In this document: piece by piece, positions 2,268-60,831 of the stretch
Layout: each line of letters starts with the position of its first letter
How positions within the stretch are numbered: position 1 is the stretch's first letter
From: Herpetosiphon aurantiacus DSM 785
Lineage (GTDB): Bacteria > Chloroflexota > Chloroflexia > Chloroflexales > Herpetosiphonaceae
Reading direction: 5' to 3'
DNA: 64,000 nt
NCBI GenBank assembly: GCA_000018565.1
Contig: CP000875.1
Location: forward strand, 377,199 to 441,198
Notes under the pieces: generated by a model
What the model was told of the DNA's origin: nothing
What the model saw: the letters and a program-made list of their open reading frames with translations, nothing else
Database searches by the model: none
Translations under genes and position numbers: made by a program

Positions 2268-2283
2268 TTTAGAAGGGCTTGGC

Positions 2284-7809: not shown

Positions 7810-7896
7810 TTAAATCCCCAACTTGCGACTGATTACGCCCCAAATCATTGTGATTATGCTGGCTATGATCAACTCTGATCGCAGACGAGGTGAACG

Positions 7897-31908: not shown

Positions 31909-34101
31909 ATGCGATTACGGATTGGTTTAATCATCACGCTTTTGTTGATGATCACCGTTGGAAAAACCCTGCAAAACCCCAGGGATGTAGCCCAAGCCCT
32001 GTCCCAAACCCCTGATCAAACCACAATTCCGCAAGGATTTTCCCGCATCCAAGAGCAAGAATTTAACGACTTACCACTCAATGCCAATCTGTTGGTTGGC
32101 AGCAGTTTGGTGGTGCGCGGCTCAATTCAGCAAACTGATGTTGATTATTTTGCGCTTGATTTAACCGCTGGTCAGCGTTTAGCAATGGCCACCATTACTA
32201 GCGCCAGCGTCGCCTCCAGCGATACAACCATCCATCTCTATGCTTTCGATGGCGTAAATAGTGATCTGATCGAAACCGATTTGAGCGATGGCATTCTGAG
32301 CAACAGTTCCTCGGTGATCAGTTCTCAGCCAATTACGCTGACCGGAACCTACCTGATTAAAGTTGAAGGTGGCACTGCAACCACGGTTATTCAGCCCTAC
32401 GACTTATATGTGCGAGTGCTGAGCGAAACTGCCAGCGAACAAGAACCTAACGACGAAGTTGCCCAAACCATCGATGCTCAAGCGGCAATCAGCGGGGTAG
32501 TTTCAACCACCAACGATCTTGATCGCTATCAATTTAATGTTAATCCTGGCGACACAATTTTTGCCACCGTTGATTTTGATCCAGAGCGTGATGGCATAAC
32601 TTGGAATGGCTTTCTCGATATTGGCATGATCAACAATACCTATCTTCGGGCTAACGATAGTAATAGTGTTTCACCCAACGCTGAAGCCAATGTGATCACC
32701 GTTCAACAAGCTGGCACTTACGAAATTCGCATTGGCTCACTACTTGAGATCGGTGTGGATGCTAGTTATTTGGCGCAAGTTACGATTATTCCCGCCGCTA
32801 TTCAGGCCAACTGCCAAACCGTGATGAGTTCAGGTGCACCACAGAATATTGGCCCACAAGCTGGAATAATTCAATCGACATTAACCGTCACCCAAGCAGC
32901 CAACATTGCCGATATTGATGTATTGCTCAATTTAGAGCATAGCTTCATGCCCGATTTGGATGTAACCCTGACTGCCCCCGATGGTAATGTGATTAACCTC
33001 TTCACCGATATTGGCAATGTGCAGCAACCTACCGTTAATCTCGTGATTGATCAACAAGCTGCCTTACCACTTGGCACGTATAACGTTTTGAGTGGCACGC
33101 ATTTTGGTCCGAAATGGAATAGCAGCCTCGATTGGTTGGCTGGACAACAAGCCCAAGGCCAATGGATACTGACGATTTATGATGATACCGACCAAAATGC
33201 TGGTGTATTAAATGGTTGGGGCTTGCGGATTTGTGGCATGCCCACGCCAAGCGATTGTCCAGTCGGGATGTCGCGCAGCGTGCTTTATAGCAGCCAATTT
33301 GAGGCCGATAATGGCGGGCTTACTCCAGGCCCATTTGACCAAGAATGGGTTTGGGGTAATCGTAATAGCCCACCAATTGTTGGTGCGTATAGCGGCGAAA
33401 ATAGCTGGAATACCAATTTAACCGGAAATTATCCTAATAGTACCCGCATGCAATTGCTATCACCGCAAATTGACTTAACCAATGTTACGGGGCCAATTTA
33501 TGCAAGTTGGTATCAACGCTATCAGCTTGATAATAGTGTTAACGATTTTTATCAGGTAACGGCCCATAAGCCCCAAGTTGAACAGATTCTCTTTCGCCAT
33601 CAAAGTGCTGCAATGCAAATTAACCTCGGAAATCCTTTGGTTACGCTTGATCAAAGTACAGGTTGGGGACTTCAACGCCATGATCTAAGCGATTTTGCTG
33701 GCACTTCACTCTATTTAACCTGGGATTTCGGTAGTGATGAGGTAGCAAGTTTTGCTGGGATTGCGCTTGATGATGTGGAAATTACTGGTTGTATTGATCC
33801 AGCTCAAATCACGCCAACGAATACGCCAACGCCAAGCAACACGCCAACCCTAACATCAACTCCTAGCAATACGCCAACGCCAAGCAATACGCCAACGGCG
33901 ACCGCAACACCAACCCAAACCTTAACGCCAACTGAAACGCCAACGCCAAGCAATACGCCAACGGCGACCGCAACGCCGACCCAGACCGAAACGCCAACCG
34001 CGACTGAAACACCAAGTATCACCCCAACGAGTACACCAAGTGTAACGGCAGATCCAAGCTTAATCCCGGTCTATCTGCCTTTAGTCAGTAAAGATAATTA
34101 A
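31909..34101 (+). CDS. Secreted multidomain protein: signal peptide - PPC - PPC - proprotein-convertase P-domain - MAM-like domain - PT-linker - conserved C-terminal tail (paralog 1 of 5)
   Basis: GGAGG RBS. PPC signatures 'EQEPNDE..A..I.A...ISGV....D.DRYQFNV..GDT'. P-domain '[29 protein letters not shown]...W.L.I.DD...AG.L..W.L.IC'. MAM-like '[12 protein letters not shown]'. Linker [13 protein letters not shown].... Tail '[12 protein letters not shown]'. No peptidase catalytic domain. Confidence 0.8.
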
Positions 34102-34242: not shown

Positions 34243-36393
34243 ATGCGTCTACGGATTGGGTTTATCGGCCTCATGATCGCTTTACTTGGGTTAACTGGTA
34301 GTTTACGGGCTTTCAAGCCAGTTCAAGCTGCCCCAAGTAATCCAACTACCGCTCAAATTGCTCAAGCGAATGTCCCGCAGGGGGCAGTCCGCGTTAAAGA
34401 ACAGGAAAGCAACAATACGACTGCCACCGCCAACGCGATCATGTCCAGCAGTACCCTAATTCGCGGGAATATCTGGAATGGTGATGTTGACTTCTATAGC
34501 ATTGAATTAGCCGCTGGCGATCGCCTGACCGCTGCAACCATGAGCGCGGCTTCAGCCTCTGGCAACAACGATACGGTATTAACCTTTTTTGCGCCTGATG
34601 GTACAACCGTGATTGAAACCGATGATAACGATGGCTCACTTGGCGGCAATGCCTCGGTGATTAGTTCGGCTCCGGTGACCCAAACCGCTACCTACTATCT
34701 GCGGTTAAGTAGTACTAGTACCAACCAAGTTCGCTACTACGACTTCTATGTGCGGGTGTTGAGCGAAGCCGCCACTGCTGAAACAGAGCCAAATGATCTT
34801 TTGACAACCGCCCAAGTGTTGCCTACCAGCGGCACAATTTCGGGGGTCTTATCGGCTACAACCGACCTCGATTACTACCAGCTTAACTTGAATGCTGGTG
34901 ATACGATCTTTACCAGCCTCGACCTCAACCCTGAGCGCGATGGCATTGTTTGGAACGGACGACTTGGGATCGGCGCGTTTAATGGCTTTACTTTAGTTGT
35001 TGATGATACCAGTGTAGTCTCACCAAATGCTGAAGCCCATTTTATGACCGTCAAGACGAGTGGTACCTACTATGTGCTGGCCTCAACGACGGCTGCAAGT
35101 ATTCCGGCTGAAGCAACCTATTTGTTGGGTGTCACAGTGTTCCCTGCCGAGCAGCAAGCCAATTGTACAACCTACACCAGCGCTGATGTTGCCAAGACCA
35201 TCCCAACGACTACCAGCTTTATTACCTCAACCTTGACTGTTCCCGACAACTTTATCATCGCTGATCTTGATGTCAGTATCGAACTGACTCATACCAATAT
35301 GCCCGACCTCGATGTTCAACTCCAAGGGCCAGATGGCAATGTTGGAGGGCTATTTACCGATATTAGCAATAATACCCAGACCACGATGAATATCGATCTT
35401 GATGATGAAGCCGCAATTCCAATTGGACTTTTCGCGATTGTCTCGGGCATCCGTTATATTCCAGAGTTGAATTATCGCCTCGATTGGTTCGATGGTGGGC
35501 GATCGGCTGGCACCTGGACTCTCTTGATTCACGATGATACTGCTGCCAACGGTGGAACATTGCAAAATTGGAGCATCACGCTGTGTGCCGCGCCACCAGC
35601 AAGCTGCCCCGATGGTATGAGCATGAGCACAATCACGAGCACTGATTTTGAAGCCAATGATGGTGGCTTTACCCATAGCGGAACTGCTGATTCATGGGAA
35701 TATGGCGCACCAAGCGCTGCTCCATTGATCGGTAGCTATAGTGGGGCTAATAGCTGGAAGACCAACCTTGACGGAACTTATTCGGTCAGTAGTATTGCCA
35801 ATCTCTTCTCGCCATCAATTAGTATTCCCAATGTGACTGGCCCTGTCTACATCCAATGGCAACAACGCTACCAGATGGAAAGTGCTAATTTTGATCATTA
35901 CACGGCCTCGGTTGGTACAGGCGTTGTGACCAAAACCTTGTATGAATTTGATGCAGCAACCATGACCAATGCAGTTGGTAACCCAAGCGTAACCTTCCAA
36001 GAAAGCACAGTTTGGAGTCGCCAGCTCTACGATATTAGCGAGTTCAAGGGTCAATCAATCCAGGCCTTGTATCACCTAGATACTGATAGTTCGGTTCAAT
36101 TGGGTGGTATCGCGATCGACGATTTCCAAATTATGGCCTGTGACGGTGTGGCAGCAACCGCGACCCCAACCGAAGCACCAACCGCTACCAGCACACCAAC
36201 CAACACGCCAACTAACACACCAACCAACACGCCAACTAACACGCCAACCAATACACCGATTATCACGATTACCCCAAGCAATACGCCGACGGCTACGGTT
36301 ACCCCAAGTAACACGCCAACCGTTACCCCAAGCGTGACCGCTGGGCCAACCATGATTCCGGTTTATATGCCATTAGTCGGTAAAGACCAATAG
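34243..36393 (+). CDS. Paralog 2 of the secreted PPC-PPC-P-domain-MAM-like-PT-linker family
   Basis: Same architecture as paralog 1. Signal peptide '[23 protein letters not shown]'. Tail '[12 protein letters not shown]'. Confidence 0.8.
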
Positions 36394-36547: not shown

Positions 36548-38629
36548 ATGCGTTTACGGATTGGGTTTATCGGTCTTATGATCGCCCTGCTCGGATTAAC
36601 GGGCGGCTTGCGTAGTTTAACCAGCGTTCAAGCAGTACCCAACGCCCCTCAAAATCTCGCAGCCCACCAACTTAATACTCCTCAAGGATTTGCGCGGATT
36701 AGCGAACAAGAATCAAACGATACTCCTGCCATGGCCCAGCCAATCATTGGCGATTCAGCCGTCATTCGCGGCTATATCACTGCCAATGATAGCGATTTCT
36801 TGGCAATTCCACTTACTAGCGTCCAACGGGTGGTCGCAGCAACTATGACCTCGGCTTCAGCCACAAATATTGTCGATTCGATCCTGACTCTCTATCAACC
36901 TGATGGGACAACTGTCTTGGAGCTTGATAATGACGATGGGATTTTTGGCGTGAGTTCTTCGGTTATCAGCTCAGCGATTATCACGACTACTGCAACCTAC
37001 TATCTCAAGGTCACCGCCAACAATACGACGAATAAAATTTATTATTACGATTTATATGTACGGATTTTAACCAGCGAACCAATTGTCGAACAAGAGCCAA
37101 ATGAGCCAGCTCAAATGCTGCCAGCAGCTGGGATTGTCAGTGGGATTATTAGCCAAACTGGCGATATTGATCGTTTTCAGCTGGCCTTGAATCCAGGCGA
37201 TACGTTGTTTACAACCCTCGATATAGACCCCGAACGTGATGGCATTAGCTGGAATGGGCGGGTAACGATCGGGCCATTTGGGCCAAATATCATCACAATC
37301 AACGATGGCAATGCGGTTTCGCCCAATGCCGAATCGGCCCAATTAACCGTTAAAGAAGCTGGTAATTATATAATCAGCGTCGATAACCTATCAGCAATTA
37401 ATAATTCGACCTACATCCTACAAGTGCTGATCATCCCAGCCGAAGAGCAAGCCAATTGTCAGACCTATATGAGCACCGATGTCAATAAAACAATTCCACC
37501 TGATCCTGGTATGATCACGTCGGGATTAAATATTCCTGACAATCTCTTGATTGGCGATTTAGACTTGATTATTCAGCTTGATCATACCTTTATACCTGAT
37601 CTCGATGCGCAATTGACTACGCCTGATGGGAATATCCTTGGGCTATTCAGCGATATTGGAATCACGACTAGTGCCCCAGCGAGCATGAACCTGATTATTG
37701 ATGATGAAGCAGCCTTACCATCATTTCAAGCGCTTAGCGTCAATGGATTGATCAACTTGCCTGAGGCAGCCTATCGGATGAGTTGGTTTGATGGCCAACG
37801 TACCCAAGGCAATTGGACATTAACGCTCTATGATGATGCAACTGGCGATGGGGGCACATTACTCAATTGGGGCTTGCAGGTTTGCGCTGCGCTGCCACCC
37901 GCCGATTGTCCTGATGGCACGGTTAGCAGCACCATCTACAGCACCGATTTTGAAGCAAATGATGGGGGCTTTACCCATAGCGGAACCACTGATCCATGGC
38001 AATATGGTCAACCAAACTCAGCGCCAATTGTGGGCAGTTATAGTGGGAGCAATAGTTGGAAAACCAATTTAACTGGCAATTATCCCGCTTTAATGAATGC
38101 CAACCTAACGTCGCCGGCCATTGATCTTAGCGGTGTAGTTGGGCCAATTCAGGTGCAATGGCAACAACGCTATCAAATCGAATCAGCAGCATTTGATAAT
38201 TATGCAGCACAGATTGTTGGTAGTAGCAACCAAGTACTCTTTCAGCATCGCGATGGCGTAATGCGTGAATCAGTTGGCAATCCGCTGGTTACGGTTCAAG
38301 CAAGCACTGGTTGGAGCCGCCAACTGCATGATATTAGTAGCTTTGTGGGTCAGTCGATTCAACTGCAATTCCATATGGATACTGATTCCAGCGTTGAACT
38401 GGCGGGTGTCGCCATTGATGATGTGCTGGTAACTGGTTGTGTTGTGCTCCCTACGGCCACCCCAACCGAAACGCCAACTAACACACCGACCAATACCCCC
38501 ACCGAAACCCCAACCAATACGCCGACGGTTACGGTTACGCCAAGTAATACACCAATCGTTACCCCAAGCGTGACGGCTGGGCCAACGACGATTCCAGTTT
38601 ATCTGCCGTTGGTTAGTAAAGGCGAATAA
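36548..38629 (+). CDS. Paralog 3 of the secreted PPC-PPC-P-domain-MAM-like-PT-linker family
   Basis: Same architecture. Tail '[12 protein letters not shown]'. The leader 36394-36547 is nearly identical to 38630-38784. Confidence 0.8.
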   Translation: MRLRIGFIGLMIALLGLTGGLRSLTSVQAVPNAPQNLAAHQLNTPQGFARISEQESNDTPAMAQPIIGDSAVIRGYITANDSDFLAIPLTSVQRVVAATMTSASATNIVDSILTLYQPDGTTVLELDNDDGIFGVSSSVISSAIITTTATYYLKVTANNTTNKIYYYDLYVRILTSEPIVEQEPNEPAQMLPAAGIVSGIISQTGDIDRFQLALNPGDTLFTTLDIDPERDGISWNGRVTIGPFGPNIITINDGNAVSPNAESAQLTVKEAGNYIISVDNLSAINNSTYILQVLIIPAEEQANCQTYMSTDVNKTIPPDPGMITSGLNIPDNLLIGDLDLIIQLDHTFIPDLDAQLTTPDGNILGLFSDIGITTSAPASMNLIIDDEAALPSFQALSVNGLINLPEAAYRMSWFDGQRTQGNWTLTLYDDATGDGGTLLNWGLQVCAALPPADCPDGTVSSTIYSTDFEANDGGFTHSGTTDPWQYGQPNSAPIVGSYSGSNSWKTNLTGNYPALMNANLTSPAIDLSGVVGPIQVQWQQRYQIESAAFDNYAAQIVGSSNQVLFQHRDGVMRESVGNPLVTVQASTGWSRQLHDISSFVGQSIQLQFHMDTDSSVELAGVAIDDVLVTGCVVLPTATPTETPTNTPTNTPTETPTNTPTVTVTPSNTPIVTPSVTAGPTTIPVYLPLVSKGE

Positions 38630-38784: not shown

Positions 38785-40912
38785 ATGCGTTTCAGGATTG
38801 GGTTTATCGGCCTTATGCTTGTCGTACTTGGGTTAACTGGTAGTTTGCGGGCTTTCAAGCCAGTTCAAGCCGCCCTCAGTAATCCAAATACCTCACGAAT
38901 TGTTCAAACGCATGTGCCGCAAGGTGCAGCTCGGATCAATGAACAAGAAAGTAATAATACACTTGCAACGGCTAACCCGATCATGGCGAGTAGGGCGATC
39001 ATTCGTGGGATTATCTGGAGTGGTGATGTTGATATGTATCGGATTGAATTAGCAGCAGGCGACCGATTGAATGTCGCGACCATGACTTCCGCTGCAACCC
39101 ATAGCAGCACTGACACCGTACTAAGCCTGTATGCACTCGATGGAACAAGCCTCATTGAATTAGACGATGACGATGGAACATTTGGTAGTCTTTCATCAGT
39201 CATTAGCTCAGTTCCGGTCACCATAACAGGTACATATTATATTCGTATCAATGCGTTCTTGGCTACCGCCCAAGTTCGTTACTACGATTTGTATGTACGC
39301 ATCTTTAGCGAAGCCACCACTGCTGAGCAAGAACCAAATGATGTTGTTGGCACAGCCCAAGTGTTGCCAGCCAGCGGCGCTGTTGAAGGTAGTTTATCCG
39401 CCACGACTGATGTTGATCTGTTTAAATGCTGGCGATACGATTTTTACGAGTATCGACTTTAACCCTGAACGTGATAGCACAAATTGGAATGGAAGCCTCG
39501 GTATTGGACTATTTAACGGTCTTATTTTATTCGCTGATGATAACAGTACTTCGGCTCCGCCGAATGCTGAGGCTCATTTTATGACCGTTAAAAATAGTGG
39601 AACCTATTATGTTGTTGTTTCAACAAGTGCGAGCAGTATTCCGGCTGAGGCAACCTATCTATTAAATGTTACGACCTTTCCTGCCGAGCAACAAGCGAAC
39701 TGCACAACCTACACCAGCACCGATGTTGCCAAAACGATTCCAACCACCACCAGTTTTATCACCTCAACTTTGAGCGTTCCAGATAACTTTATCATTGCCG
39801 ATCTTGATCTAAGCATTCAATTGACCCATAACAACATGCCCGACCTCGATGTCCAGTTGCAAGGGCCAGATGGTAATGTTGGTGGGCTATTTACCGATAT
39901 TGGATCAAATCTTGTGACGATGATGGATCTTGACCTTGATGATGAAACAGGGATCACGATTAACAGCTTTGCGGCTGTAGCTGGGATGAAGTATATTCCT
40001 GAATCTGTCTATCGCCTCAATTGGTTTGACGGTGGTCGCTCAGCCGGCACTTGGACGCTGTTGATTCACGATGATCTCGCTAGCAATGGTGGTACACTCC
40101 AAAACTGGAGTATTACGCTGTGTGCCGCCCCTCCCGCGAGCTGCCCCGATGGTATGAGCATGAGCACAATCACGAGCACCGATTTTGAGGACAATAATGG
40201 TGGTTTTACTCACAACGGAACCGGCGATACATGGGAGTATGGTGCACCAATCGCCGAACCACTGATCGGCAGTTACAGCGGGGTTAATAGTTGGAAAACT
40301 AATTTGGATGGAACCTATAGTGCTAGCAGTGTTGCCGATCTCTTCTCACCATCAATCAGTATTCCGAATGTGGCTGGCCCAGTCTATTTGCAATGGCACC
40401 AACGCTATCAGATGGATACGGCTGGATCTGATCGCTATAGCGCATCAATTGGTGCTGGGGCTGTGACCAAAACCCTGTATGAGTTTGAGTCAGCCGTAAT
40501 GACCAATCCAGTTGGCAATCCAAGCGTGACCTTCCAAGAAAGCACAGTTTGGAGTCGTCAGTTACACGAAATTAGCGAGTTCAAGGGTCAATCGGTTCGG
40601 GTTCAATATCACCTTGATAGTAATGCTACAACGAATTTGGGTGGCGTTGCAATCGACGATTTTCAAATTATGACATGTGATGAGGTGATCGCAACCCCAA
40701 CCAACACCCCAACTGCAACTCCAACCAACACCCCAACTGCAACTCCAACCGCAACCCCAACCGCAACCCCAACCGCAACCCCAACCAACACCCCAACCAA
40801 TACGCCAACGGTTACGGTTACGCCAAGTAATACGCCAACCGTTACCCCAAACGTGACGGCTGGGCCAACGACGATTCCGGTCTATCTGCCACTAGTCGTT
40901 AGAGGCGAATAG
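38785..40912 (+). pseudogene. Paralog 4/5 of the same family, disrupted by a +1 frameshift in an A-run (39424-39426); the two ORF fragments are 38785-39462 and 39251-40912
   Basis: N-terminal and C-terminal parts align to the other paralogs in different frames. Removing one A from 'tttaaatgct' restores '...[23 protein letters not shown]...'. Tail '[12 protein letters not shown]'. Confidence 0.65.
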
Positions 40913-44561: not shown

Positions 44562-44624
44562 AGGGGGTGCAGGGGGATTAAAGCCCCCTGCGTCTCCCGC
44601 CTTGAGGCGGGACGAAGGGTGGTG
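44562..44624 (+). repeat. Two-hairpin structured repeat element (copy 1), inside the opu operon spacer
   Basis: gggggtgcagggggattaaagccccctgcg + tcccgcc-ttga-ggcggga + cgaagggtgg. A second copy at 49449-49509 shows a compensatory stem change. Confidence 0.7.
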
Positions 44625-49377: not shown

Positions 49378-49448
49378 AAATTCTTCCTTATAGCAATAAT
49401 ACTTTTAATCTATCTTCAATTGTATTGCAATCCAAATGGTCAAATTTA

Positions 49449-49509
49449 GGGGGTGCAGGGGGATGAAAACACCCTGCGTTTCCCTCCAGCGGAGGGACGG
49501 AAGGGTGGC
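49449..49509 (+). repeat. Two-hairpin structured repeat element (copy 2)
   Basis: gggggtgcagggggatgaaaacaccctgcg + tccctcc-agc-ggaggga + cggaagggtgg. Stem 2 differs from copy 1 by a compensating G:C to T:A pair. Confidence 0.7.
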
Positions 49510-49560
49510 GAAATAAAATCTAGGCTTATAAATAGATGTCGATAACAGCGCTTAAATTGC

Positions 49561-49589
49561 TTGACATAGCCTCAAGATTTCTTTATACT
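49561..49589 (+). promoter_or_regulatory. Strong sigma-70-type promoter of the FadR-family regulator operon
   Basis: TTGACA (49561-49566), 17-nt spacer, TATACT (49584-49589). Confidence 0.6.
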
Positions 49590-49597
49590 CGACTGGT

Positions 49598-49614
49598 AAG
49601 TGGTCTGACCAGTT
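49598..49614 (+). promoter_or_regulatory. FadR-box-like palindromic operator (AAGTGGTCTGACCAGTT)
   Basis: Differs from the E. coli FadR consensus AACTGGTCNGACCAGTT at one position. Sits between the -10 and the start codon of a FadR-subfamily GntR gene. Confidence 0.55.
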
Positions 49615-49621
49615 GGTGAAT

Positions 49622-50329
49622 ATGAGCGAATTACAACGACCAGCATCGTATTGCGAACAACAATTGATCAAACGAATTATTGGTGGTAGTTATGCCGCAG
49701 GTAGCAGCCTGCCCAGCGAACGTGAGCTAGCAGTCCAGTTGGGAGTCACGCGGCCAACCCTGCGCGAAGCGATTCAACGCTTGGCTCGCGATGGCTGGCT
49801 TGTCGTGCAACAAGGCAAGCCGACAATGGTTTGCAATATTTGGCATGATGGCGGCTTGGGCGTATTGCGCAGTTTGGTGCAATATAGCACTGAGCTGCCA
49901 GCCCAAATTGTGCCGCAACTACTAGCGGTGCGCCTCGATTTAGCGCCAAGTTACACCGCCATGGCGATCGAACATCACGCCGAAGCGATTGCGGCCTTAT
50001 TACAAACCGCCCTGCCATTGGCTGATAACGCGGCGGCCTACGCTCAATTCGATTGGCAATTACAGCATCAATTAACGATCGCTTCGACAAACCCAATTTA
50101 TACCTTGATTTTAAATGGCTTTCGTGGCTTCTACCAAATGATGGCCTTGGATTATTTTGAGCTAGCGCAGGCCCGCGAACATTCGGCGGCCTTTTATCGC
50201 ACCCTGTTACAAGCTGCCCAAACTCGCGATGCCGATTTAGCTCGCCAAGCCAGCCAATTCGCCATGCAGCAGAGCATCGAAGTTTGGCAATTGTTAGCCG
50301 CGAATATCAATAATACACAAAGGGGATAA
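49622..50329 (+). CDS. GntR family transcriptional regulator, FadR (FCD) subfamily
   Basis: N-terminal winged HTH 'LPSERELAVQLGVTRPTLREAIQRL'. C-terminal all-helical FCD-like domain. Start at the ATG at 49622 (the ORF-track GTG at 49613 lies inside the operator). Confidence 0.8.
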   Translation: MSELQRPASYCEQQLIKRIIGGSYAAGSSLPSERELAVQLGVTRPTLREAIQRLARDGWLVVQQGKPTMVCNIWHDGGLGVLRSLVQYSTELPAQIVPQLLAVRLDLAPSYTAMAIEHHAEAIAALLQTALPLADNAAAYAQFDWQLQHQLTIASTNPIYTLILNGFRGFYQMMALDYFELAQAREHSAAFYRTLLQAAQTRDADLARQASQFAMQQSIEVWQLLAANINNTQRG

Positions 50330-50330
50330 T

Positions 50331-51932
50331 ATGCGCCGTTGGAATGGTTGGGGCGACGAGAGCAAAGAGTATCCGGTTAAAGCCGGCATTTTAGGCTTGC
50401 TCAAGCAATTAATTGGTGCTGGCACGGCTCCCAGTGATGTTCGTTTGGCCGAGATTGTTGCCCAAGTTCCAGCATCACGCTTGCCACACCACGAATTGAT
50501 CAGCACCGATCCTGAGTTGCGGATTCGCCATGCTCGTGGTCAGAGTTTCGCCGATTTGGTGGCTACCCGCAGCGGCGAGCTAGGCCAAATTCCCGATGGC
50601 GTGGCGTTTCCCCAATCCAGCCAAGCAGTTCGCGAATTGATCGATTGGGCTAGCGACAACAATGTTAGCCTGATTCCCTATGGCGGTGGAACCAGCGTTG
50701 CGGGGCATATTAATCCCGTTGCTGGCGAGCGACCCATTTTAACTGTCAGCCTTGCCAAACTTAATCGGCTGATGGAAATCAATCCAACTGCGCGGCTAGC
50801 TCGCTTTGGCGCTGGAATCAAAGGTCCAGATCTCGAAGCCCAATTACGGGCTTTGGGCTTTACGCTGGGCCATTTTCCCCAATCGTTTGAGCTTTCGACG
50901 CTGGGCGGCTGGATTGCAACCCGCTCTAGTGGCCAGCAATCGCTTGGTTTTGGGCGGATTGAACAACTTTGGGCAGGCGGGCGGGTTGAAACACCCCGAG
51001 GCTCGTTAGAATTAGCGCCCTTTCCGGCTTCGGCGGCTGGCCCTGACCTGCGTGAAATGCTGCTTGGCTCAGAAGGTCGTTATGGCATTATCACCGAAGT
51101 CACTGTGCGAATCCGCCCAATTCCTGAGCTTGATGTAGTCCATGCGATCTTTTTTGCAAATTGGGAGCAAGCCCAAACTGCCGCGCGAACAATCGCCCAA
51201 GCCAACCTACCATTGGGCATGTTGCGGCTTAGCACGCCCACCGAAACCATGACCAACCTTGCCTTGGCTGGCCATGAGCGGGTGATTGGTTTGCTCGAAG
51301 GCTTTTTGAAATTGCGTGGGGTTGGCAGCGAAAAATGTCTGCTGTTGGTTGGCTTTATTGGCAGCCAAGCTCAAGTGAAGCTCAGTCGTCAAGCGGTGTT
51401 GAGCTTGATGCGTCGGCATGGCGGCGTTCACATCGGCCAAAGCTTTGGCAAAGCTTGGCAGGCTGGGCGCTTTCGTGCGCCGTATCTACGCAATCGGCTG
51501 TGGGAGTTGGGCTATGGCGTGGATACGGTCGAAACCGCCACGACATGGGAGAATGTTACGCCATTGTTGAATAGATTGGAACATAGCTTGCGCCATGGAT
51601 TAGCGGCTGAGCACGAACAGGTGCATGTGTTCACCCATCTTTCACATTTTTACCCAACTGGCTCAAGCATCTACACAACCTATGCTTTTCGGCTAGGCAA
51701 CGATGCGCAGGCAACTTTAGCCCGTTGGCACGCCTTGAAAACCGCTGCAAGCCAAGCAATTGTGGCCGCAGGCGGCACGATTAGCCATCAACATGGCGTG
51801 GGGCTTGATCATCGCCCCTATCTCGAAGCTGAAAAAGGCCGCTTAGGAATTGGCGCATTACAACAACTTGGCCAGCATTTCGACCCGCAGGGCTTGCTCA
51901 ATCCCGCCAAATTATACGAGGATGGCCAATGA
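50331..51932 (+). CDS. FAD-linked oxidase, alkyldihydroxyacetonephosphate-synthase (AGPS)/GlcD-like
   Basis: PCMH-type FAD-binding domain 'LIPYGGGTSVAGH'. C-terminal FAD-oxidase_C-like region with 'HQHGVGLDH'. 533 aa. Confidence 0.8.
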   Translation: MRRWNGWGDESKEYPVKAGILGLLKQLIGAGTAPSDVRLAEIVAQVPASRLPHHELISTDPELRIRHARGQSFADLVATRSGELGQIPDGVAFPQSSQAVRELIDWASDNNVSLIPYGGGTSVAGHINPVAGERPILTVSLAKLNRLMEINPTARLARFGAGIKGPDLEAQLRALGFTLGHFPQSFELSTLGGWIATRSSGQQSLGFGRIEQLWAGGRVETPRGSLELAPFPASAAGPDLREMLLGSEGRYGIITEVTVRIRPIPELDVVHAIFFANWEQAQTAARTIAQANLPLGMLRLSTPTETMTNLALAGHERVIGLLEGFLKLRGVGSEKCLLLVGFIGSQAQVKLSRQAVLSLMRRHGGVHIGQSFGKAWQAGRFRAPYLRNRLWELGYGVDTVETATTWENVTPLLNRLEHSLRHGLAAEHEQVHVFTHLSHFYPTGSSIYTTYAFRLGNDAQATLARWHALKTAASQAIVAAGGTISHQHGVGLDHRPYLEAEKGRLGIGALQQLGQHFDPQGLLNPAKLYEDGQ

Positions 51933-53509
51933 ATCCGCAGTTGCAATGGAACGCTGCTTGGCGCGAAACCACTTGGCAAGTGCTCGATCAAGCGTGGGAT
52001 GTGATTATTATTGGCGGTGGAATTACCGGCGCAGGTTTGGTGCGCGAAGCCACGCGCTCAGGCCTCAAAGCGTTGTTGCTTGAAGCCCGCGATTTTGCTT
52101 GGGGAACCTCAAGCCGCTCATCAAAATTAGTGCATGGCGGTTTGCGCTATTTGGCTCAGGGCCAAGTGCGGGTTACCTATGATTCGGTGGTTGAGCGCGA
52201 ACAGCTTTTAAATGAAGCACCTGGTTTAGTTGCCCCATTGGGCTTTTTAATTGGCCTGCCGCAGGGCAAACCAATCAAGCGCTGGGTGTATCAGGCTGGC
52301 TTATTGGCCTACGATGCGCTTGCTCGTCGCCGCGAACAGCATTATCTGAGCATGGCCAATTTGCGGTTACAAGCGCCCTACCTTGCTGATGCCAACTTAG
52401 CGGCTGGCTTGCGCTACAGCGATGCCCAAACCGATGATGCCCGTTTGGTCTTGCGAATTTTGCGTGAAGCAACCGCCGCTGGAGCCTCGGTATTAAATTA
52501 TGCAGCGGTTGAGCAATTAGTTCGTGCAAACGAGCAAGTGGTCGGGGTGGTTGTGCGCGATCAGCTCAGCCAACGCCAGCAAACCCTGACGGCCAAAGCG
52601 ATCGTGAATGCGACGGGTGCTTGGGTCGATCAACTGCGCCAGCAGATTCAAGCGCCAGCCAAAATGCGCCCGTTGCGGGGCAGCCATTTGGTATTTAGTC
52701 AAGCCCAATTACCACTCGCCCAAGCGATCAATTTGGAGCATCCTCGTGATCAGCGGCCAGTCTTTTTTGTGCCATGGGAAGGCGTGAGCATCGTCGGCAC
52801 AACTGATCTTGATCATGAGCAAGATTTATGGCAAGAGCCAAGTATCAGCCCGGCTGAAGTTGCCTATTTGCTTGAAGCTGCCCAAGCCGCTTTTCCAAGT
52901 TTGGATTTGAGTTTGAGCGATGTAATTTCGACCTGGAGTGGCGTGCGACCAGTGGTCGATACGGGAGCCAGCGATCCATCCAAAGAATCACGGGATTATG
53001 TGCTATGGCAAGAGCAAGGCTTATTGACGGTCACAGGTGGTAAATTAACCACCTTTCGCTTGATTGCGCTCGAAGCCTTGAAACTTTTACGCCAACGCTT
53101 GCCTCAGATTAAACGTTGGCCGAACGCCCCGCGATTGAATCCTGCGCCCAGTAGTTTGGCTGGCACACTAGCCCCACGCATCAAACAACGCTTGTTAGGG
53201 CGTTATGCTGCCGAAGCACCCTTGATGCTGCAAGAATTACCCAACCATGAGTTTTGTTCAATCGCCGACTTGCCAAGTTTGTGGGCCGAAATCCGTTGGG
53301 CAGCACGATATGAAGCCGTGACCAATTTAGGTGATTTGCTGTTGCGGCGCAGCCGTTTAGGCCTCTTGTTGCCCCATGGCGCAGCGGAATATCAGGCTCA
53401 AATTCAAGCAATTTGCACTGAAGAATTGGGCTGGGATGCGCAGCACTGGCAAACCGAGTGGCAGCAGTATCAACAGTTAATTGCCCAACACTATAGCTTG
53501 CCAGCTTAA
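51929..53509 (+). CDS. glpD: FAD-dependent glycerol-3-phosphate dehydrogenase (GlpD-like)
   Basis: ATGA overlap with the upstream gene. Dinucleotide-binding 'DVIIIGGGITGAG'. DAO domain plus the C-terminal GlpD-like alpha-helical domain. 526 aa. Confidence 0.8.
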   Translation: MNPQLQWNAAWRETTWQVLDQAWDVIIIGGGITGAGLVREATRSGLKALLLEARDFAWGTSSRSSKLVHGGLRYLAQGQVRVTYDSVVEREQLLNEAPGLVAPLGFLIGLPQGKPIKRWVYQAGLLAYDALARRREQHYLSMANLRLQAPYLADANLAAGLRYSDAQTDDARLVLRILREATAAGASVLNYAAVEQLVRANEQVVGVVVRDQLSQRQQTLTAKAIVNATGAWVDQLRQQIQAPAKMRPLRGSHLVFSQAQLPLAQAINLEHPRDQRPVFFVPWEGVSIVGTTDLDHEQDLWQEPSISPAEVAYLLEAAQAAFPSLDLSLSDVISTWSGVRPVVDTGASDPSKESRDYVLWQEQGLLTVTGGKLTTFRLIALEALKLLRQRLPQIKRWPNAPRLNPAPSSLAGTLAPRIKQRLLGRYAAEAPLMLQELPNHEFCSIADLPSLWAEIRWAARYEAVTNLGDLLLRRSRLGLLLPHGAAEYQAQIQAICTEELGWDAQHWQTEWQQYQQLIAQHYSLPA

Positions 53510-53596
53510 GCTCGTTAACACTTCTCTAATTTGACAATCTCGCCGAGATAGCTATAATTAAATCAAACCTTCTCCTCTCTCTTCTCTCCCACAAGC

Positions 53597-53626
53597 GGCT
53601 CCATTATGCGAGCCGTTTGTGGTTTT
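53597..53626 (+). repeat. 30-bp hairpin repeat ggctccattatgcgagccgtttgtggtttt (terminator-like); an identical copy lies at 55756-55785
   Basis: Stem ggctc / gagcc with loop cattatgc, followed by gtttgtggtttt. Both copies lie just downstream of plus-strand genes. Confidence 0.7.
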
Positions 53627-53676
53627 AGAACCATAACCCTCGATACTTGGTTTTCAGCAAGAACAAAATCTCATTA

Positions 53677-54618
53677 CTAACCACCAGCCATAACAACCGC
53701 ACGCATCCGCGTCGCATCGCGTATTGGCGGCGCTCCAAAAAGGCGTTTGTAGGCACGGGTAAAGTATGCGGCATCATCATAGCCTACCCGAGCACCTACA
53801 CTTGCTGCATCAAGATCTTCGCTCAATAATAAGCGCCGAGCCTCTTGTAGACGCAACTGCTGCTGATACTGACCTGGACTCATCGCGGTCACCGCCTTAA
53901 AGTGGCTGTGGAACCCAGAGACACTCATTCCTACTGCCTGTGCTAGATCAGGAATCCTAAGCGGCTGATGAAAATCACGCTGAATTTGGGCAAGCGCACC
54001 CATGATCCGATGTTCCGCTCCTCCGATGATTGCAATCTGACGCAGCCGCATACCTTGTTCGCTCATCAAGAGCCGATAAACCAGTTCCCGCATAATCAGC
54101 GGCCCCAAAACCTGCGCGTCGCGAGAGCTATTGAATAACCGGACAAGCCGTACCACCACATCCATAAATTCTCCATCCAGCGAACTTACTGCAAGTGCTC
54201 GCACCGATGCTTGACTTGCTACCGGCGTTACTCCCACCTCGGCCATAACCGAGCTAATAAGAGCTGGGGACAGTGCAAACCGAAGACTCAGATATGGTGC
54301 TTCTGGCGTGGCCTCCGTAATTTGACCAACGACGGGCAGCGCCGCCGTGGTGAGCAAGTAGTGGGCTGGATCATAGTGATACTGGTCGGCAGCTAATAGC
54401 ACCATCTTCCGCCCTTGAACAATCACGCAAAAGGCAGGAACAGTTACCCCATGAATTGGCTCCGTTGGGCCAGAAACACGGTAGACATGTACTCCAGGCA
54501 GCGGTTCAATCATTCCATCGGATGGAAGAATGTGGGCGATCCGTGTGCTGATCTCAGCGTAGTTGGCAGCCCTATGCTGGCGCTCCCAAGCAGTTTGGTG
54601 TTCTTGAGTCATCGGCAT
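53677..54618 (-). CDS. AraC family transcriptional regulator
   Basis: N-terminal cupin/AraC-binding-like domain. C-terminal dual HTH 'AAYFTRAYKRLFGAPP'. GAGGTG RBS. Confidence 0.8.
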   Translation of the reverse strand: MPMTQEHQTAWERQHRAANYAEISTRIAHILPSDGMIEPLPGVHVYRVSGPTEPIHGVTVPAFCVIVQGRKMVLLAADQYHYDPAHYLLTTAALPVVGQITEATPEAPYLSLRFALSPALISSVMAEVGVTPVASQASVRALAVSSLDGEFMDVVVRLVRLFNSSRDAQVLGPLIMRELVYRLLMSEQGMRLRQIAIIGGAEHRIMGALAQIQRDFHQPLRIPDLAQAVGMSVSGFHSHFKAVTAMSPGQYQQQLRLQEARRLLLSEDLDAASVGARVGYDDAAYFTRAYKRLFGAPPIRDATRMRAVVMAGG

Positions 54619-57283: not shown

Positions 57284-58147
57284 CTATTTATTTTTGCGCA
57301 CACCTGTGAAGCCGAGCGCACCTGGGCCAATGTGAGTGCCCACGACCGCGCCAATTTCGGCCAACACAATTCGATCGGCGGGGAAAATCTCGTTGAGGCT
57401 TTGGGCAAATTCGCGGGCTTCAGCTTCGTTACGCGAATACAGCACCGCTAATTCTTCAAACGGAGCCATGCTGCGAGCTTCTTCGATCAAGCGGGCCACA
57501 GCTTTTTTCTTGCTGCGCACTTGCTCGAACGGTTTTACCTCGCCATCACGCACATCGATAATCGGCTTAACATTGAGCAAGGTACCAAGTAAAGCGCGGG
57601 TTTTGCCAATGCGGCCACCTTTTTCGAGGTAGCGCAAGGTATCCAAGGCTGCCAACAAGCGGGTGCGCTCGACGATACTATGCACTAAGGCCACAATTTC
57701 GTCAGCCGATTTGCCTTCTTTGGCGGCGCGAGCAGCTAATAAGGCAGCCCAACCTTGCGACATAGTGGTGCTTTGCACATCGATCACCCGAATATCAAAA
57801 TCGGGCAATAATTCGGCTGCTTGCTGGGCTGAGCGAATTGTGCCGCTCAATTTGCCAGCAATATGAATCGAGATAATTGGCTCATCGTTGCCAATTGCCC
57901 GATACAATTGCTCGAACGCACCAACTGAGGGCTGCGAGGTTGTCGGCAAATTATTGCTTTCAACCAGGCGGGCATAAAATTGATCATGGGTAATTTCCAC
58001 GCCATCGGCAAACGATTCGGCATCGAAATTAACCGTCAATGGAATCACATGAATGTCGTTTTCTGCTGCCAAACCAGCGGGAATATCAGCAGTGCTGTCG
58101 GTTACAATAATCGCCACTTGGCCTCCTTCTGGCATTATTCCAGCCAC
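57284..58147 (-). CDS. fakB: DegV-family fatty-acid-binding protein (FakB-like)
   Basis: 'VAIIVTDSTADIP' DegV N-terminal signature and length. A GTG at 58117 preceded by GAAGGAGG may be the true start. Confidence 0.8.
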   Translation of the reverse strand: MAGIMPEGGQVAIIVTDSTADIPAGLAAENDIHVIPLTVNFDAESFADGVEITHDQFYARLVESNNLPTTSQPSVGAFEQLYRAIGNDEPIISIHIAGKLSGTIRSAQQAAELLPDFDIRVIDVQSTTMSQGWAALLAARAAKEGKSADEIVALVHSIVERTRLLAALDTLRYLEKGGRIGKTRALLGTLLNVKPIIDVRDGEVKPFEQVRSKKKAVARLIEEARSMAPFEELAVLYSRNEAEAREFAQSLNEIFPADRIVLAEIGAVVGTHIGPGALGFTGVRKNK

Positions 58148-58300
58148 ATTCTTACGAGCAACATTCGGCCAATTGGCAAAGCATTGCTCGTTTAGGGAAT
58201 AGCTACCCCACGCAGCCGTATAATAGCCGAAAATGGCGCTGCGTGGGGTGTTGCTTTTGGTTTATTCAAGGGTTGATTGCTGGGCAGATTCGGCGCTGGG

Positions 58301-59149
58301 CTATTCCATGCCTTCGTAGACCACCACACCCATGGCATTTGGCCCAAGGTGCGCCCCAAGTGCCGGCCCATATTCCACAATCATAACTTGATCACGCGGA
58401 TAGATTGGATCGATCTTTTCGAGCAATTTCTCAACATCATCGGGCGTGGTGCTATGCATAATTGCTACTTGTTCGACCTTGGGGAAATCTTCAATAAAGG
58501 TAAATAAGCCTTCGATCGCTTTGGCTCGGGTGCGGGTGCGATCGTAGGGCACAATTTCACCATCATCAAGAATCAACAACGGCTTGATCCGTTGCATTGA
58601 GCCAAGCATGGCTGAGGCTTGGGATAACCGTCCGCTGCGTTCGAGATAATCAATTGAATCAACAAAAAACACCACATGAGTCAATTGAATAGTTTGCATG
58701 ACAACGCGATGCACTTCATCAATTGAGGCTCCGTCGAGCGCTGCCCGCGCTGCGGCGATTGCCACCATGCCCAAGCCCAGCGAAGTCGAGGTACTATCAA
58801 TCACCTCAACGCGGGTCAGCGAAGCTGGCAATTTATCGCGGGCAATCGTCGCCGATTTAACCACGCCACCGAATCGATTCGACAAGTGAATTGAAAATAC
58901 CCCGTCATATTCACGGGAAAATTGACGATAATACTGTTCAAACACTCCTGGTGCTGGTGCGGTCGTATAAGGATACGGCCCACCCTCGGCCATCCGCCGA
59001 TAAAACTGCTCGTTGCTAATGTCGATTCCAGCTCGCAACGTCTGATCACCAAAATGCACATAGATAGGAATAACGGTGATATTCAGCTCTTGTGCAAGTG
59101 CTGGTGGAATATCAGCAGTGCTATCGGTAATAATCTTTACTCGCGCCAT
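58301..59149 (-). CDS. fakB: DegV-family fatty-acid-binding protein (second FakB-like paralog)
   Basis: 'VKIITDSTADIP' signature. Start moved to MARVK (59149) from the ORF-track 59197. Confidence 0.75.
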   Translation of the reverse strand: MARVKIITDSTADIPPALAQELNITVIPIYVHFGDQTLRAGIDISNEQFYRRMAEGGPYPYTTAPAPGVFEQYYRQFSREYDGVFSIHLSNRFGGVVKSATIARDKLPASLTRVEVIDSTSTSLGLGMVAIAAARAALDGASIDEVHRVVMQTIQLTHVVFFVDSIDYLERSGRLSQASAMLGSMQRIKPLLILDDGEIVPYDRTRTRAKAIEGLFTFIEDFPKVEQVAIMHSTTPDDVEKLLEKIDPIYPRDQVMIVEYGPALGAHLGPNAMGVVVYEGME

Positions 59150-59193
59150 AACCCAACATATCTCCATCGCGCCGTCAGAAACGGGGCTGTGTA

Positions 59194-60831
59194 TCACTCC
59201 GCAGAGAGAATGTAATCATAAAATGGTTGTCCGCCGTTTTGCACCTCAACATCAAGCGCCGGGTAGGTCGCATTGATTTTGTGGGCTAGTGCTTCAGCCT
59301 GTTCCGCCGAACATTGTTCGCCATAATAGATGGTAACGATCTCATGATCGTCTAAATCCATCCGTGCTAGAATGCGATCAATCACTTCGTCGGGCTGATC
59401 GCCAGATTCAACCAGTGCGCCATTGAGCAAGCCAATCGTTTGGCCGTCGCGCACTTCAACATCATTAACCGTAGCATCGCGCACGGCGGTGGTAATTTCT
59501 GCCGTGGTAATATCTTTGATCGCGCGGCTCATGGCCTGCACATTATCGCTTGCGCCAACCGCATAATTAAAGGCAAACATTGCCGCCATACCTTGAGGCA
59601 CGGTTTTGGTTGGAATCACATGCACAACTTTATTGGTTACTTGTTGGGCTTGTTGCGCTGCCAAAATCACGTTGCTATTATTGGGCAACACGATCACCTC
59701 TGGCTGTGGCAACTTATCGATCGCCGTGACCAAATCTTGAATCGAAGGATTCATGGTTTGACCGCCAGTGACCACCTCGCCCACATTTAATGATTCGAAC
59801 AGCACACGGAAGCCTTGACCTGGTGCAACTGCGACCACCCCAACATCGCTGACTGGCTCGTCGAGCTTGACGCGGGCTGGTTGGCTGGCTTGTTGCGCTT
59901 GGGCCGCATGCAGATCGCTGCGCTGTTTATCCATATTGGTGATTTCGATTGCCCCAAGGCTGCCCCATTGCACGGCATAATTGAGCGCATCGCCAGGCCG
60001 CAACGTGTGCAAGTGCACCTTGACCAAGCGCTCATCGCCGACCGCCACCACCGATGTGCCCATTTCGGCAATCGTGTTGCGCACATCTTCGTAAGGGATA
60101 TTTTCGCCTTGGATCATAAAGTTGGTGCAATAGCCAAAATCATCATCGCTATGAATGTCGTCAAACGCCATCGCCAACTGATCGACGGGTGCAACTCGTT
60201 GTTCGAGTTGTTCGCCACGGGCAAAAGCGCGTGCGCCTTCAAAGAGCAGATACAAGCCCTCGCCGCCAGCATCAACTACGCCAGCATCACGTAACATTTT
60301 CATGAGGTTGGGCGTATTATCGACCGAAACTCGCGCACCTTTAACAATTAAATCCAGTACTTCATGCCAATTCATTTCGGGCTGAAATCCGGCGCGAGCG
60401 GCTTCGCTGGTTTCGCGAATAACGGTAAGCATCGTGCCCTCGACTGGCTTGATCACCGCTTTGTAGGCAGTGGTAGCGGCTTGTTCGAGCGCAGTTACCA
60501 GAATTTCAGGCGTACAAACCTGCTGGCCGACCATGCCTTGCGAAAGCCCGCGCAGAATTTGCGAAAGAATCACGCCCGAGTTACCACGAGCGCCCATCAA
60601 AGCCCCGCGATAGACCCGTTCCGCCACCACGGCGACCGAGGCATCATTCTGAACATCCTTGAGGGCGGCTGTCAGCGTAAGGTTCATGTTGGTTCCGGTA
60701 TCGCCATCGGGCACAGGAAACACATTTAGGGCGTTGACAGTCGCCACATTCTGGCTAAACCATGCGGCGGCTGCGCGGAATACCGCCAACAGCCGCGTGC
60801 CATCAATTTGATTCTTCGGTGCGCTGTCCAC
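59194..60831 (-). CDS. fakA: DAK2-domain protein, YloV/FakA-like fatty acid kinase
   Basis: N-terminal Dak2 signature 'VFPVPDGDTGTNM'. 545 aa, comparable in length to the ~550-aa FakA/YloV proteins. The operon includes two DegV genes and asp23. Confidence 0.8.
   Translation of the reverse strand: MDSAPKNQIDGTRLLAVFRAAAAWFSQNVATVNALNVFPVPDGDTGTNMNLTLTAALKDVQNDASVAVVAERVYRGALMGARGNSGVILSQILRGLSQGMVGQQVCTPEILVTALEQAATTAYKAVIKPVEGTMLTVIRETSEAARAGFQPEMNWHEVLDLIVKGARVSVDNTPNLMKMLRDAGVVDAGGEGLYLLFEGARAFARGEQLEQRVAPVDQLAMAFDDIHSDDDFGYCTNFMIQGENIPYEDVRNTIAEMGTSVVAVGDERLVKVHLHTLRPGDALNYAVQWGSLGAIEITNMDKQRSDLHAAQAQQASQPARVKLDEPVSDVGVVAVAPGQGFRVLFESLNVGEVVTGGQTMNPSIQDLVTAIDKLPQPEVIVLPNNSNVILAAQQAQQVTNKVVHVIPTKTVPQGMAAMFAFNYAVGASDNVQAMSRAIKDITTAEITTAVRDATVNDVEVRDGQTIGLLNGALVESGDQPDEVIDRILARMDLDDHEIVTIYYGEQCSAEQAEALAHKINATYPALDVEVQNGGQPFYDYILSAE

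Follow-up and report, generated by a model that had tools for sequence, protein, structure and literature searches.

A conserved three-part FadR-type operator, probably autoregulatory, ahead of an AGPS-like/GlpD-like operon in Herpetosiphon aurantiacus and other Chloroflexota

Introduction

FadR is the textbook acyl-CoA-sensing regulator and a common biosensor. Here, a FadR-type control element is described in a 64,000-nucleotide stretch of the genome of Herpetosiphon aurantiacus DSM 785 (contig CP000875.1, positions 377,199 to 441,198; GC content 50.3%), which is called the window below and in whose numbering all coordinates are given. The element, 23 nt long (49592-49614), lies over the promoter of a gene for a FadR-family protein, fadR, and this gene is followed by genes for two flavoenzymes, one resembling alkyl-dihydroxyacetone-phosphate synthase (AGPS) and the other resembling the glycerol-3-phosphate dehydrogenase GlpD. 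Comparison across the phylum argues with good confidence that the element is the operator of the downstream FadR-family repressor, through which the operon would be locally controlled and autoregulated, with a lipid ligand releasing the repressor.

FadR has been described as conserved in gammaproteobacteria and absent from the other proteobacterial classes (PMC5343134), and the compendium of GntR regulons of Suvorova et al. (2015) contains six Chloroflexi regulators of the FadR subfamily, for example HyuR, with no Herpetosiphon protein and no FadR proper among them (PMC4494728). No prior description of a Chloroflexota FadR operator or operon was found in the literature searched. What appears to be new is a FadR-type repressor and operator that would be autoregulated, with a tripartite and asymmetric site, phylum-wide in Chloroflexota and tied to an AGPS-like/GlpD-like module. 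Such a system would connect a bacterial AGPS-like enzyme, from a family that is poorly defined in bacterial ether-lipid metabolism, with a sensor of the acyl-CoA type, and, as Herpetosiphon is culturable, the link is testable. The regulatory logic itself is conventional; its conservation is striking.

The operator and its promoter

Read directly, the sequence runs from the -35 hexamer TTGACA (49561-49566, + strand) through a 17-nt spacer to the -10 hexamer TATACT (49584-49589, + strand), and after a further 8 nt to the 17-mer AAGTGGTCTGACCAGTT (49598-49614). A first-pass annotation of this DNA had placed a near-consensus promoter and then a match to the FadR box at these positions, and both are borne out, the promoter at 49561-49589 scoring as an 11/12 match in a promoter scan. 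The 17-mer has seven of eight palindromic pairs, with half-sites AGTGGT (49599-49604) and ACCAGT (49608-49613) about a dyad centre at T 49606, and has a single mismatch, at position 3, to the consensus AACTGGTCNGACCAGTT. The operator had been taken to be these 17 bp. The match to the FadR consensus stands, but the true element is 23 nt long and includes a third half-site, ACTGGT (49592-49597), recognized from its conservation across loci and from the joint inversion described below; like the 17-bp box, it is assigned to neither strand. The whole conserved element, 49592-49614, is separated from the -10 hexamer by 2 nt, and the transcription start is predicted at about 49596-49597.

Within the window the 17-mer is the sole match to AACTGGTCNGACCAGTT when up to three mismatches are allowed, with 0.14 matches expected, which is weak evidence when taken alone, as 13 of 100 shuffled sequences gave at least one. 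A match with no more than one mismatch is expected, by our own arithmetic, about 0.0015 times per 64 kb on both strands, and the perfect 11-nt core TGGTCTGACCA occurs a single time in the 64-kb window. Scored with a position weight matrix (PWM), the 17-mer reaches 32 bits and is the only site of the window at 10 bits or above. The decisive evidence, above any statistics on a single window, is that the operator is conserved across loci, and on this ground it is not a product of chance.

Conservation of the operator across loci

The comparison set consisted of the best 80 loci from at least 485 GTDB species representatives, all from distinct species and with a FadR 48-85% identical to the window protein. 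A site matching at 12 or more of 16 positions was found within 300 nt upstream of fadR at 78 of the 80 loci, the remaining two being too short on the upstream side. The exact sequence AACTGGTCAGACCACTT, the reverse complement of the window 17-mer, is present at 42 other loci (43 of 78 counting the window). The information content is about 2 bits at the core positions and falls to 0-0.2 bits in the flanks, and when the 244-nt intergenic region of the window was compared with distant loci by blastn, only the operator, over 21-26 nt, could be aligned.

The asymmetry of the site is also kept, one half-site reading ACTGGT (with the C in 74 of 78 loci) and the other AGTGGT (78 of 78). Beside the AGTGGT half stands the third half-site, ACCAG, at positions 18-22 of the oriented element; its letters are found in 75 (A), 73 (C), 74 (C), 72 (A) and 67 (G) of the 78 loci, and it is exact in 63 of them and within one mismatch in 75. 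The full element is thus AACTGGTCAGACCACTTACCAG(T), with three TGGT/ACCA cores at 7-bp spacing. The window carries the element in inverted form, ACTGGT (49592-49597) preceding AAGTGGTCTGACCAGTT, and in the four clearest inverted loci, which are the window, L001, L002 and L035, the entire 23-nt unit flips jointly. Because the whole unit flips together, the third half-site is considered to be part of the operator and not of a direction-bound promoter. Among the at least 122 exact occurrences of the 17-mer listed from metagenomes (on 120 stretches), 72 immediately precede a fadR homolog, 12 sit at the ends of contigs and 38 are found elsewhere.

Two variants of the outer part were observed. In a second class of sites upstream of fadR, comprising 12 metagenome sites and also L131, L185 and L191, GACCTC replaces ACCAGT after an identical 17-mer; this is a shifted or variant third half-site and presumably marks a distinct FadR sub-clade. 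A related form, ACCTCTGACCAG, is seen at the genome loci L004, L039 and L050.

The promoter is conserved along with the operator. A promoter scoring at least 9/12 stands directly upstream of the element at 71 of 78 loci, with an exact TTGACA at 47 of these 71, and the commonest -10 forms are CATACT, TATAAT and TATACT. The arrangement is that expected of a sigma-70-type promoter with an overlapping repressor site, for which -35 and -10 hexamers at 16-18 nt and an operator between the -10 hexamer and the gene start are the criteria. Between the end of the -10 hexamer and the element there are 6 nt in 44 of the 64 loci with the common orientation and 2 nt in five of the seven inverted loci, the window included, and in both orientations the dyad centre falls about 15-17 nt past the -10 hexamer, at about +8 to +10 relative to the predicted start. 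This is the position of a repressor, judged by analogy with the fad promoters of E. coli, in which the FadR site extends over the transcription start (PMC9329746). Taken together, the comparisons make it very probable that the palindrome is truly bound by a repressor, as part of a 23-base, three-part operator over the fadR promoter.

The regulator

The gene directly behind the site, fadR (49622-50329, + strand), encodes 235 amino acids, identified from Pfam, NCBIfam and PDB matches. The first-pass annotation had read it as a GntR gene with a FadR-type C-terminal domain, and Pfam agrees: the product scores 73.9 bits for GntR (cut-off 27) and 133.9 bits for FadR_C (PF07840; cut-off 23.6), the latter over 161 of 164 profile positions. 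Among the NCBIfam models, the product matches the FadR equivalog NF003444 at 215.2 bits, above its cut-off of 189, and TIGR02812 (fadR_gamma) at 208.4, below its cut-off of 249.2. The E. coli FadR structures 1hw1 and 1e2x align over residues 4-229 with an E value of 1e-46 and 37% identity. By these profile and structure matches the window regulator is FadR proper and not just a member of the broad FadR/FCD subfamily. Its likeliest start is ATG 49622, since homologs share the N-terminus MSELQRPA and independent gene calls on 22 metagenome contigs agree; an alternative TTG at 49613 falls within the operator.

In E. coli FadR, base-specific contacts are made by R35, T44, R45, T46 and H65, and R35, R45, R49 and G66 are indispensable (PMC7797058, PMC2602784). 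Across 27 Chloroflexota FadRs, E34, R35, T44, R45, R49 and G66, together with the neighbouring T47 and K67, are invariant, with T46 and H65 changed as described below; overall, the clade very probably recognizes DNA in a FadR-like manner. On the ligand side, M168 and Y172 of E. coli FadR shift upon acyl-CoA binding (PMC9329746). In the same 27 proteins Y172 is kept throughout and M168 has given way to Phe without exception, and further changes in the pocket are G216 to M, T106 to L and, in the Herpetosiphon protein of the window, R213 to Q. Y179, R105, D145, S219 and W223, which we take to be acyl-CoA pocket or ligand-contact residues, are conserved in the Chloroflexota FadRs. An acyl-CoA-type ligand is plausible from these residues, although not secure.

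A protein search gave 2420 relatives at an E value of 1e-10 or better, headed by Herpetosiphon proteins (85-96% identity) and then by more than 100 clusters at 53-60% identity from Chloroflexota metagenome-assembled genomes (MAGs); many of these relatives carry the PGAP name FadR. In a scan of one genome per GTDB species, at least 485 species encode a relative, and the best 80 loci come from Anaerolineae, Ardenticatenaceae, Promineifilaceae, Herpetosiphonaceae, Thermoflexia and similar groups, with a few from MAGs labelled Acidobacteriota or Gemmatimonadetes. As far as its distribution tells, the Chloroflexota FadR is an old, phylum-wide clade, neither isolated nor recently transferred. The site had been called unexpected in a Chloroflexi genome, and this is true relative to the literature (PMC5343134) but not relative to the databases, in which such proteins are widespread and already named FadR.

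The operon and its enzymes

Behind fadR lie the gene for the AGPS-like FAD-linked enzyme (50331-51932, + strand; 533 amino acids; Pfam FAD_binding_4 and FAD-oxidase_C), called the oxidase below, and that for the GlpD-like FAD-dependent homolog of glycerol-3-phosphate dehydrogenases/oxidases (51929-53509, + strand; 526 amino acids; Pfam DAO and DAO_C). Overlaps of 4 bp had been proposed within the operon; one is present, as ATGA, between the oxidase and GlpD-like genes, but fadR and the oxidase gene are separated by a 1-nt spacer. By tblastn and clustering of open reading frames (ORFs), the order fadR, oxidase, GlpD-like is kept in nearly all loci. The oxidase follows fadR in 68 loci, the GlpD-like gene is third in 49 loci by a crude ORF call and is detected by tblastn in about 70, and GlpD precedes the oxidase in three. 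ORF clustering across the loci revealed no other broadly conserved neighbours of the operon. The proposal that the regulator controls its own gene together with the two flavoenzyme genes is strongly backed by the joint conservation of site and operon in about 75 other species and on 72 metagenome contigs.

The oxidase aligns over nearly its full length with AGPS structures (Dictyostelium 2uuu, E value 6e-78; mammalian 4bby, E value 1e-61), and carries the N-terminal motif WNGWGD, with WNGWG present in 63 of 70 orthologs. Its residues aligned to R419 and Y578 of AGPS, which we take to be important in that enzyme, are identical. His616 and His617 of AGPS have been named as active-site residues (PMC13019191); the loop His615-His616-His617 is H-Q-H in the window protein, as it is in 59 of 62 readable Chloroflexota orthologs, the other three having HHH. 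Homologs of the oxidase are named 'FAD-binding oxidoreductase' by NCBI and 'alkyldihydroxyacetonephosphate synthase' by JGI. The GlpD-like protein scores 312.7 and 274.7 with the NCBIfam GlpD models, below their cut-offs of 360 and 352, and its best PDB matches are the glycerol-3-phosphate dehydrogenases/oxidases 3da1, 2rgh and 2qcu. The pair, given earlier as an AGPS-like oxidase and GlpD, is AGPS-like and GlpD-like, but each protein departs from full family membership at one point, the oxidase in its H-Q-H loop and the GlpD-like protein in its scores.

In about 20 loci an FGGY-family kinase gene directly follows GlpD on the same strand. The kinase was rejected as GlpK or XylB, with NCBIfam scores of 160 (below 590) and 241 (below 380), respectively, and because it is neither of these by the NCBIfam cut-offs, a simple 'glycerol catabolism operon' was not adopted as the reading. 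AGPS (EC 2.5.1.26) replaces the acyl group of acyl-dihydroxyacetone phosphate (acyl-DHAP) with a fatty alcohol; clustering of neighbours across loci gave no conserved FAR or DHAP acyltransferase gene near the operon. The set of kinase, GlpD-like and AGPS-like enzymes might, speculatively, act on a substituted glycerol phosphate or DHAP derivative, in ether-lipid synthesis or salvage. A possibly similar mycobacterial neighbourhood, glpD1/Rv2251, was considered, but the literature gave only incidental mentions and the comparison was dropped.

Proposed mechanism and alternatives

In the mechanism that we consider probable, a FadR dimer would bind the two inverted half-sites of the 17-bp box in the TGGT-N3-ACCA geometry of E. 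coli FadR, and the third half-site, 7 bp further on, would probably add a contact, possibly with a second dimer. Because the element, 2-6 nt past the -10 hexamer, covers the predicted transcription start, a bound repressor would be expected to block RNA polymerase and so to silence a single transcript carrying fadR and the AGPS-like and GlpD-like genes. If it behaves as E. coli FadR does, the repressor would be freed by a lipid ligand, most likely a long-chain acyl-CoA, and its release would induce both enzymes together with the repressor itself, in a negative autoregulatory loop.

Several points weigh against this mechanism. Its support is wholly comparative, and its description as local control is drawn from about 1.9 Mb of partial data and not from a whole genome. 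Two of the five base-specific contacts are changed clade-wide (T46 to P in 27 of 27 proteins and H65 to Q in 26 of 27), and the published E. coli consensus contains nothing equivalent to the third half-site. The pocket changes M168 to F, G216 to M and R213 to Q may mean that the ligand is not acyl-CoA, and the ribosome-binding signal at ATG 49622 is poor, with GGTGA merely 2 nt upstream.

The same operator could serve a global FadR of fatty-acid degradation and synthesis genes, the autoregulatory site being merely the strongest of many. We regard this as unlikely, even though the protein clears the cut-off of the NCBIfam FadR equivalog and the operator equals the E. coli consensus (PMC9329746). 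The scans, made with the PWM on the window and on 1.05 Mb around the 80 fadR loci and with the exact 17-mer in metagenomes, point the other way. No second site of 10 bits or more was found in the window by PWM, despite genes for fakA, two fakB/DegV proteins and a patatin; the 1.05 Mb gave two extra sites of at least 14 bits against one in shuffled sequence; and the oxidase/GlpD pair is the only gene set that travels with fadR. The 38 metagenome occurrences away from fadR, among the matches listed, fall mostly within ORFs (about two-thirds) or by unrelated genes, on contigs of 31-72% GC. Those in intergenic positions adjoin genes for TRAP transporters (DctP/DctM), AFOR with a FadH-like reductase, a GT8 glycosyltransferase and a glycosyl hydrolase, and none of them, among the matches listed, has the third half-site; they appear to be fortuitous or to belong to different FadR-subfamily regulators of other phyla. 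Likewise, no 17-mer was seen beside lipid genes among the matches listed, and none of these matches supports a lipid regulon in Chloroflexota, although an exact-match search is insensitive to degenerate sites, as regulon sites usually are when compared with autoregulatory ones. The first-pass annotation had expected a scan with the palindrome to uncover a fatty-acid/glycerolipid regulon, and had named a lack of further sites at lipid genes, together with a failure of the regulator to bind the site, as the outcome that would speak against its reading. That regulon finds no support in the partial sequence scanned so far, as no lipid-gene sites appeared in the window, in the 1.05 Mb of flanks or among the metagenome matches listed. 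Within these data the regulator looks local, and the Chloroflexota FadR looks like a regulator of a glycerol-phosphate or ether-lipid-type module and not like a master regulator of fad and fab genes.

The outer repeat ACTGGT-N10-ACCAGT might also fold into a 5'-terminal mRNA hairpin that affects stability or translation, instead of providing a third protein half-site. The 23-mer folds at -8.7 kcal/mol (z -2.3) and the segment 49590-49625 at -12.1 kcal/mol (z -3.4), and transcription predicted to begin at about position 1 of the element, as it is in the common orientation, would put the hairpin at the very terminus of the transcript. In the window, however, the -10 hexamer ends 2 nt before the 5' arm, a start at about 49596 deletes this arm, and the remaining RNA has no significant structure, with a z score of -0.15; moreover, the 10 nt of the 'loop' are no less invariant than the arms and make up a FadR half-site themselves, both arms are invariant and leave no covariation to test, and Rfam gave no match, so that a hairpin seems improbable. 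Of slighter probability still is binding by another regulator, either of the GntR/FadR subfamily or the adjoining AraC-type protein, or a palindrome arisen by chance. TGGT-N3-ACCA is generic to the FadR subfamily (PMC4494728, PMC2602784), and exact copies also occur beside unrelated genes in other lineages; but the site and this fadR clade occur together in about 150 independent contigs whatever the neighbours, the adjacency of the AraC-type gene to the operon is not conserved, the DNA-contact arginines are invariant and chance is excluded by the phylogenetic footprint.

Beyond the preferred reading of a local, autoregulated operon, a more specific picture may tentatively be drawn, which as a whole we hold to be possible but doubtful. 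FadR in Chloroflexota, and in some Acidobacteriota, may be the dedicated, self-regulated switch of a new glycerolipid module, its three-half-site operator recruiting more than one dimer. In this module the FGGY kinase, the GlpD-like enzyme and the H-Q-H AGPS-like enzyme would act in series on an alkyl- or acyl-glycerol, taking a substituted glycerol to its 3-phosphate, then to a DHAP derivative and finally through an ether/ester exchange. If true, this would give bacteria a route to ether lipids, by synthesis or by salvage, that is gated by a lipid ligand, with a multi-dimer binding that is not known for FadR proper.

Three observations made during the scans are recorded here. At a distance of 4-7 kb from the operon there is a fatty-acid kinase cluster (57284-60831, - strand) without a FadR-type site; it consists of a FakA-like gene (59194-60831, - strand; Dak2 and FakA_M/C domains) and two DegV/FakB genes identified from domain matches (57284-58147 and 58301-59197, - strand), and suggests that exogenous fatty acids are activated as acyl-phosphate, which bears on the actual ligand of FadR. 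On the metagenome contig Ga0105104_10028604 (L110), the full 24-nt operator AACTGGTCAGACCACTTACCAGTA with its third half-site occurs at 2000-2023 (- strand) inside an ORF for a membrane-protein-like product of 505 amino acids (1515-3032, + strand), in which it reads LLVSGLTSYQ; there is no fadR nearby, and the match is too long for chance. The 36% GC metagenome contig Ga0180438_10025791 (L090) carries exact 17-mers at 433-449, 1017-1033 and 3552-3568, within 3.2 kb; two of the three copies are intergenic, one of them beside a GT8 glycosyltransferase gene, and the contig, 6.2 kb long, showed no FadR homolog. This triple site may represent the regulon of a related regulator in another phylum.

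Other features of the window

A candidate small RNA (53531-53627, + strand) lies between the stop of the GlpD-like gene (53509) and a convergent gene for an AraC_N-type regulator (53677-54618, - strand). It has a perfect sigma-70 promoter, TTGACA-16-TATAAT (53531-53558), followed by a CU-rich run AAACCTTCTCCTCTCTCTTCTCTCCCAC at about 53566-53593, an 11-bp hairpin (53591-53601/53610-53620) and then GGTTTT. In two Herpetosiphon-clade loci, L001 (11886-12000) and L002 (11894-12012), the transcribed part recurs with 100% identity, while the promoter spacer and flanks diverge; the candidate has no Rfam match. The CU-rich stretch resembles an anti-Shine-Dalgarno sequence, and the hairpin may also terminate the transcript of the fadR operon. 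In the intergenic region upstream of the fadR promoter, a GC-rich segment of about 40-70 nt, ggggtgcagggggatgaaaacaccctgcgtttccctccagcggagggacggaagggtgg, is found at 49445-49512 and recurs as a partial copy at 44562-44598, in another intergenic region of the window, and twice in a related genome, in L001 at 7832-7899 and 15975-16024; it looks like a small dispersed repeat.

Elsewhere in the window, the patatin-like lipase gene mentioned above, recognized from a domain match, lies at 21424-22263. Four tandem paralogs on the + strand (31909-34101, 34243-36393, 36548-38629 and 39251-40912) code for secreted proteins of large size that bear P_proprotein, PPC and InhA-like MAM domains, a protease-like arsenal that is consistent with a predatory Herpetosiphon.

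Comparison with known systems

The oxidase resembles AGPS (also ADPS) of eukaryotes and its Myxococcus xanthus counterpart MXAN_1676 in its near-full-length alignment, its WNGWG motif and its equivalents of R419 and Y578, and is unlike AGPS in the H-Q-H loop of 59 of 62 Chloroflexota orthologs, which stands in place of His615-His616-His617. Bacterial agps homologs are known from myxobacteria and from Acidobacteria SD4 (PMC13159169, PMC13012113). The partners in the Myxococcus agps operon are FAR and acyltransferase genes, whereas here the partner is GlpD-like and sometimes an FGGY kinase. The literature searched on bacterial agps contained no mention of FadR, of GlpD, of a Chloroflexota agps or of a link between Chloroflexota ether lipids or agps and FadR.

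The three-part operator has an architectural parallel in NanR, an E. coli member of the FadR subfamily, the (GGTATA)3 operator of which places three close hexamers over the promoter and is bound cooperatively by three dimers (PMC8012715). The NanR repeats are all direct and differ in sequence, whereas in the present element one half-site is inverted and the cores are 7 bp apart. By analogy, NanR provides a precedent for more than two half-sites in the FadR subfamily, the resemblance being architectural only.

The closest relative is E. coli FadR, the 17-bp operator consensus of which is aaCTGGTCnGACC(T/A)Gtt (PMC9329746). The two systems share the two-domain architecture of the protein, with 37% identity over the full length, a near-identical operator core with TGGT-N3-ACCA spacing, a site over the transcription start (PMC9329746), the key DNA-binding arginines together with Gly66, and several residues of the acyl-CoA pocket. 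The E. coli gene, however, is not autoregulated (PMC9329746) and is monocistronic, and its product controls dispersed fad and fab genes, although FadR does autoregulate in some gammaproteobacterial groups (PMC5343134). The window fadR, in contrast, heads an operon with two flavoenzymes and showed no fad or fab targets in the sequence scanned; its operator is invariantly asymmetric in Chloroflexota (ACTGGT versus AGTGGT) and has a third half-site, and the protein carries the clade-wide changes T46 to P, H65 to Q and M168 to F and scores below the fadR_gamma (TIGR02812) cut-off. The operator is thus nearly unchanged relative to that of E. coli, yet the target set, the autoregulation and the architecture of the operator appear to differ, and a 23-bp probe together with the T46P, H65Q and M168F replacements offers tests of how the specificity and the ligand response of FadR evolved.

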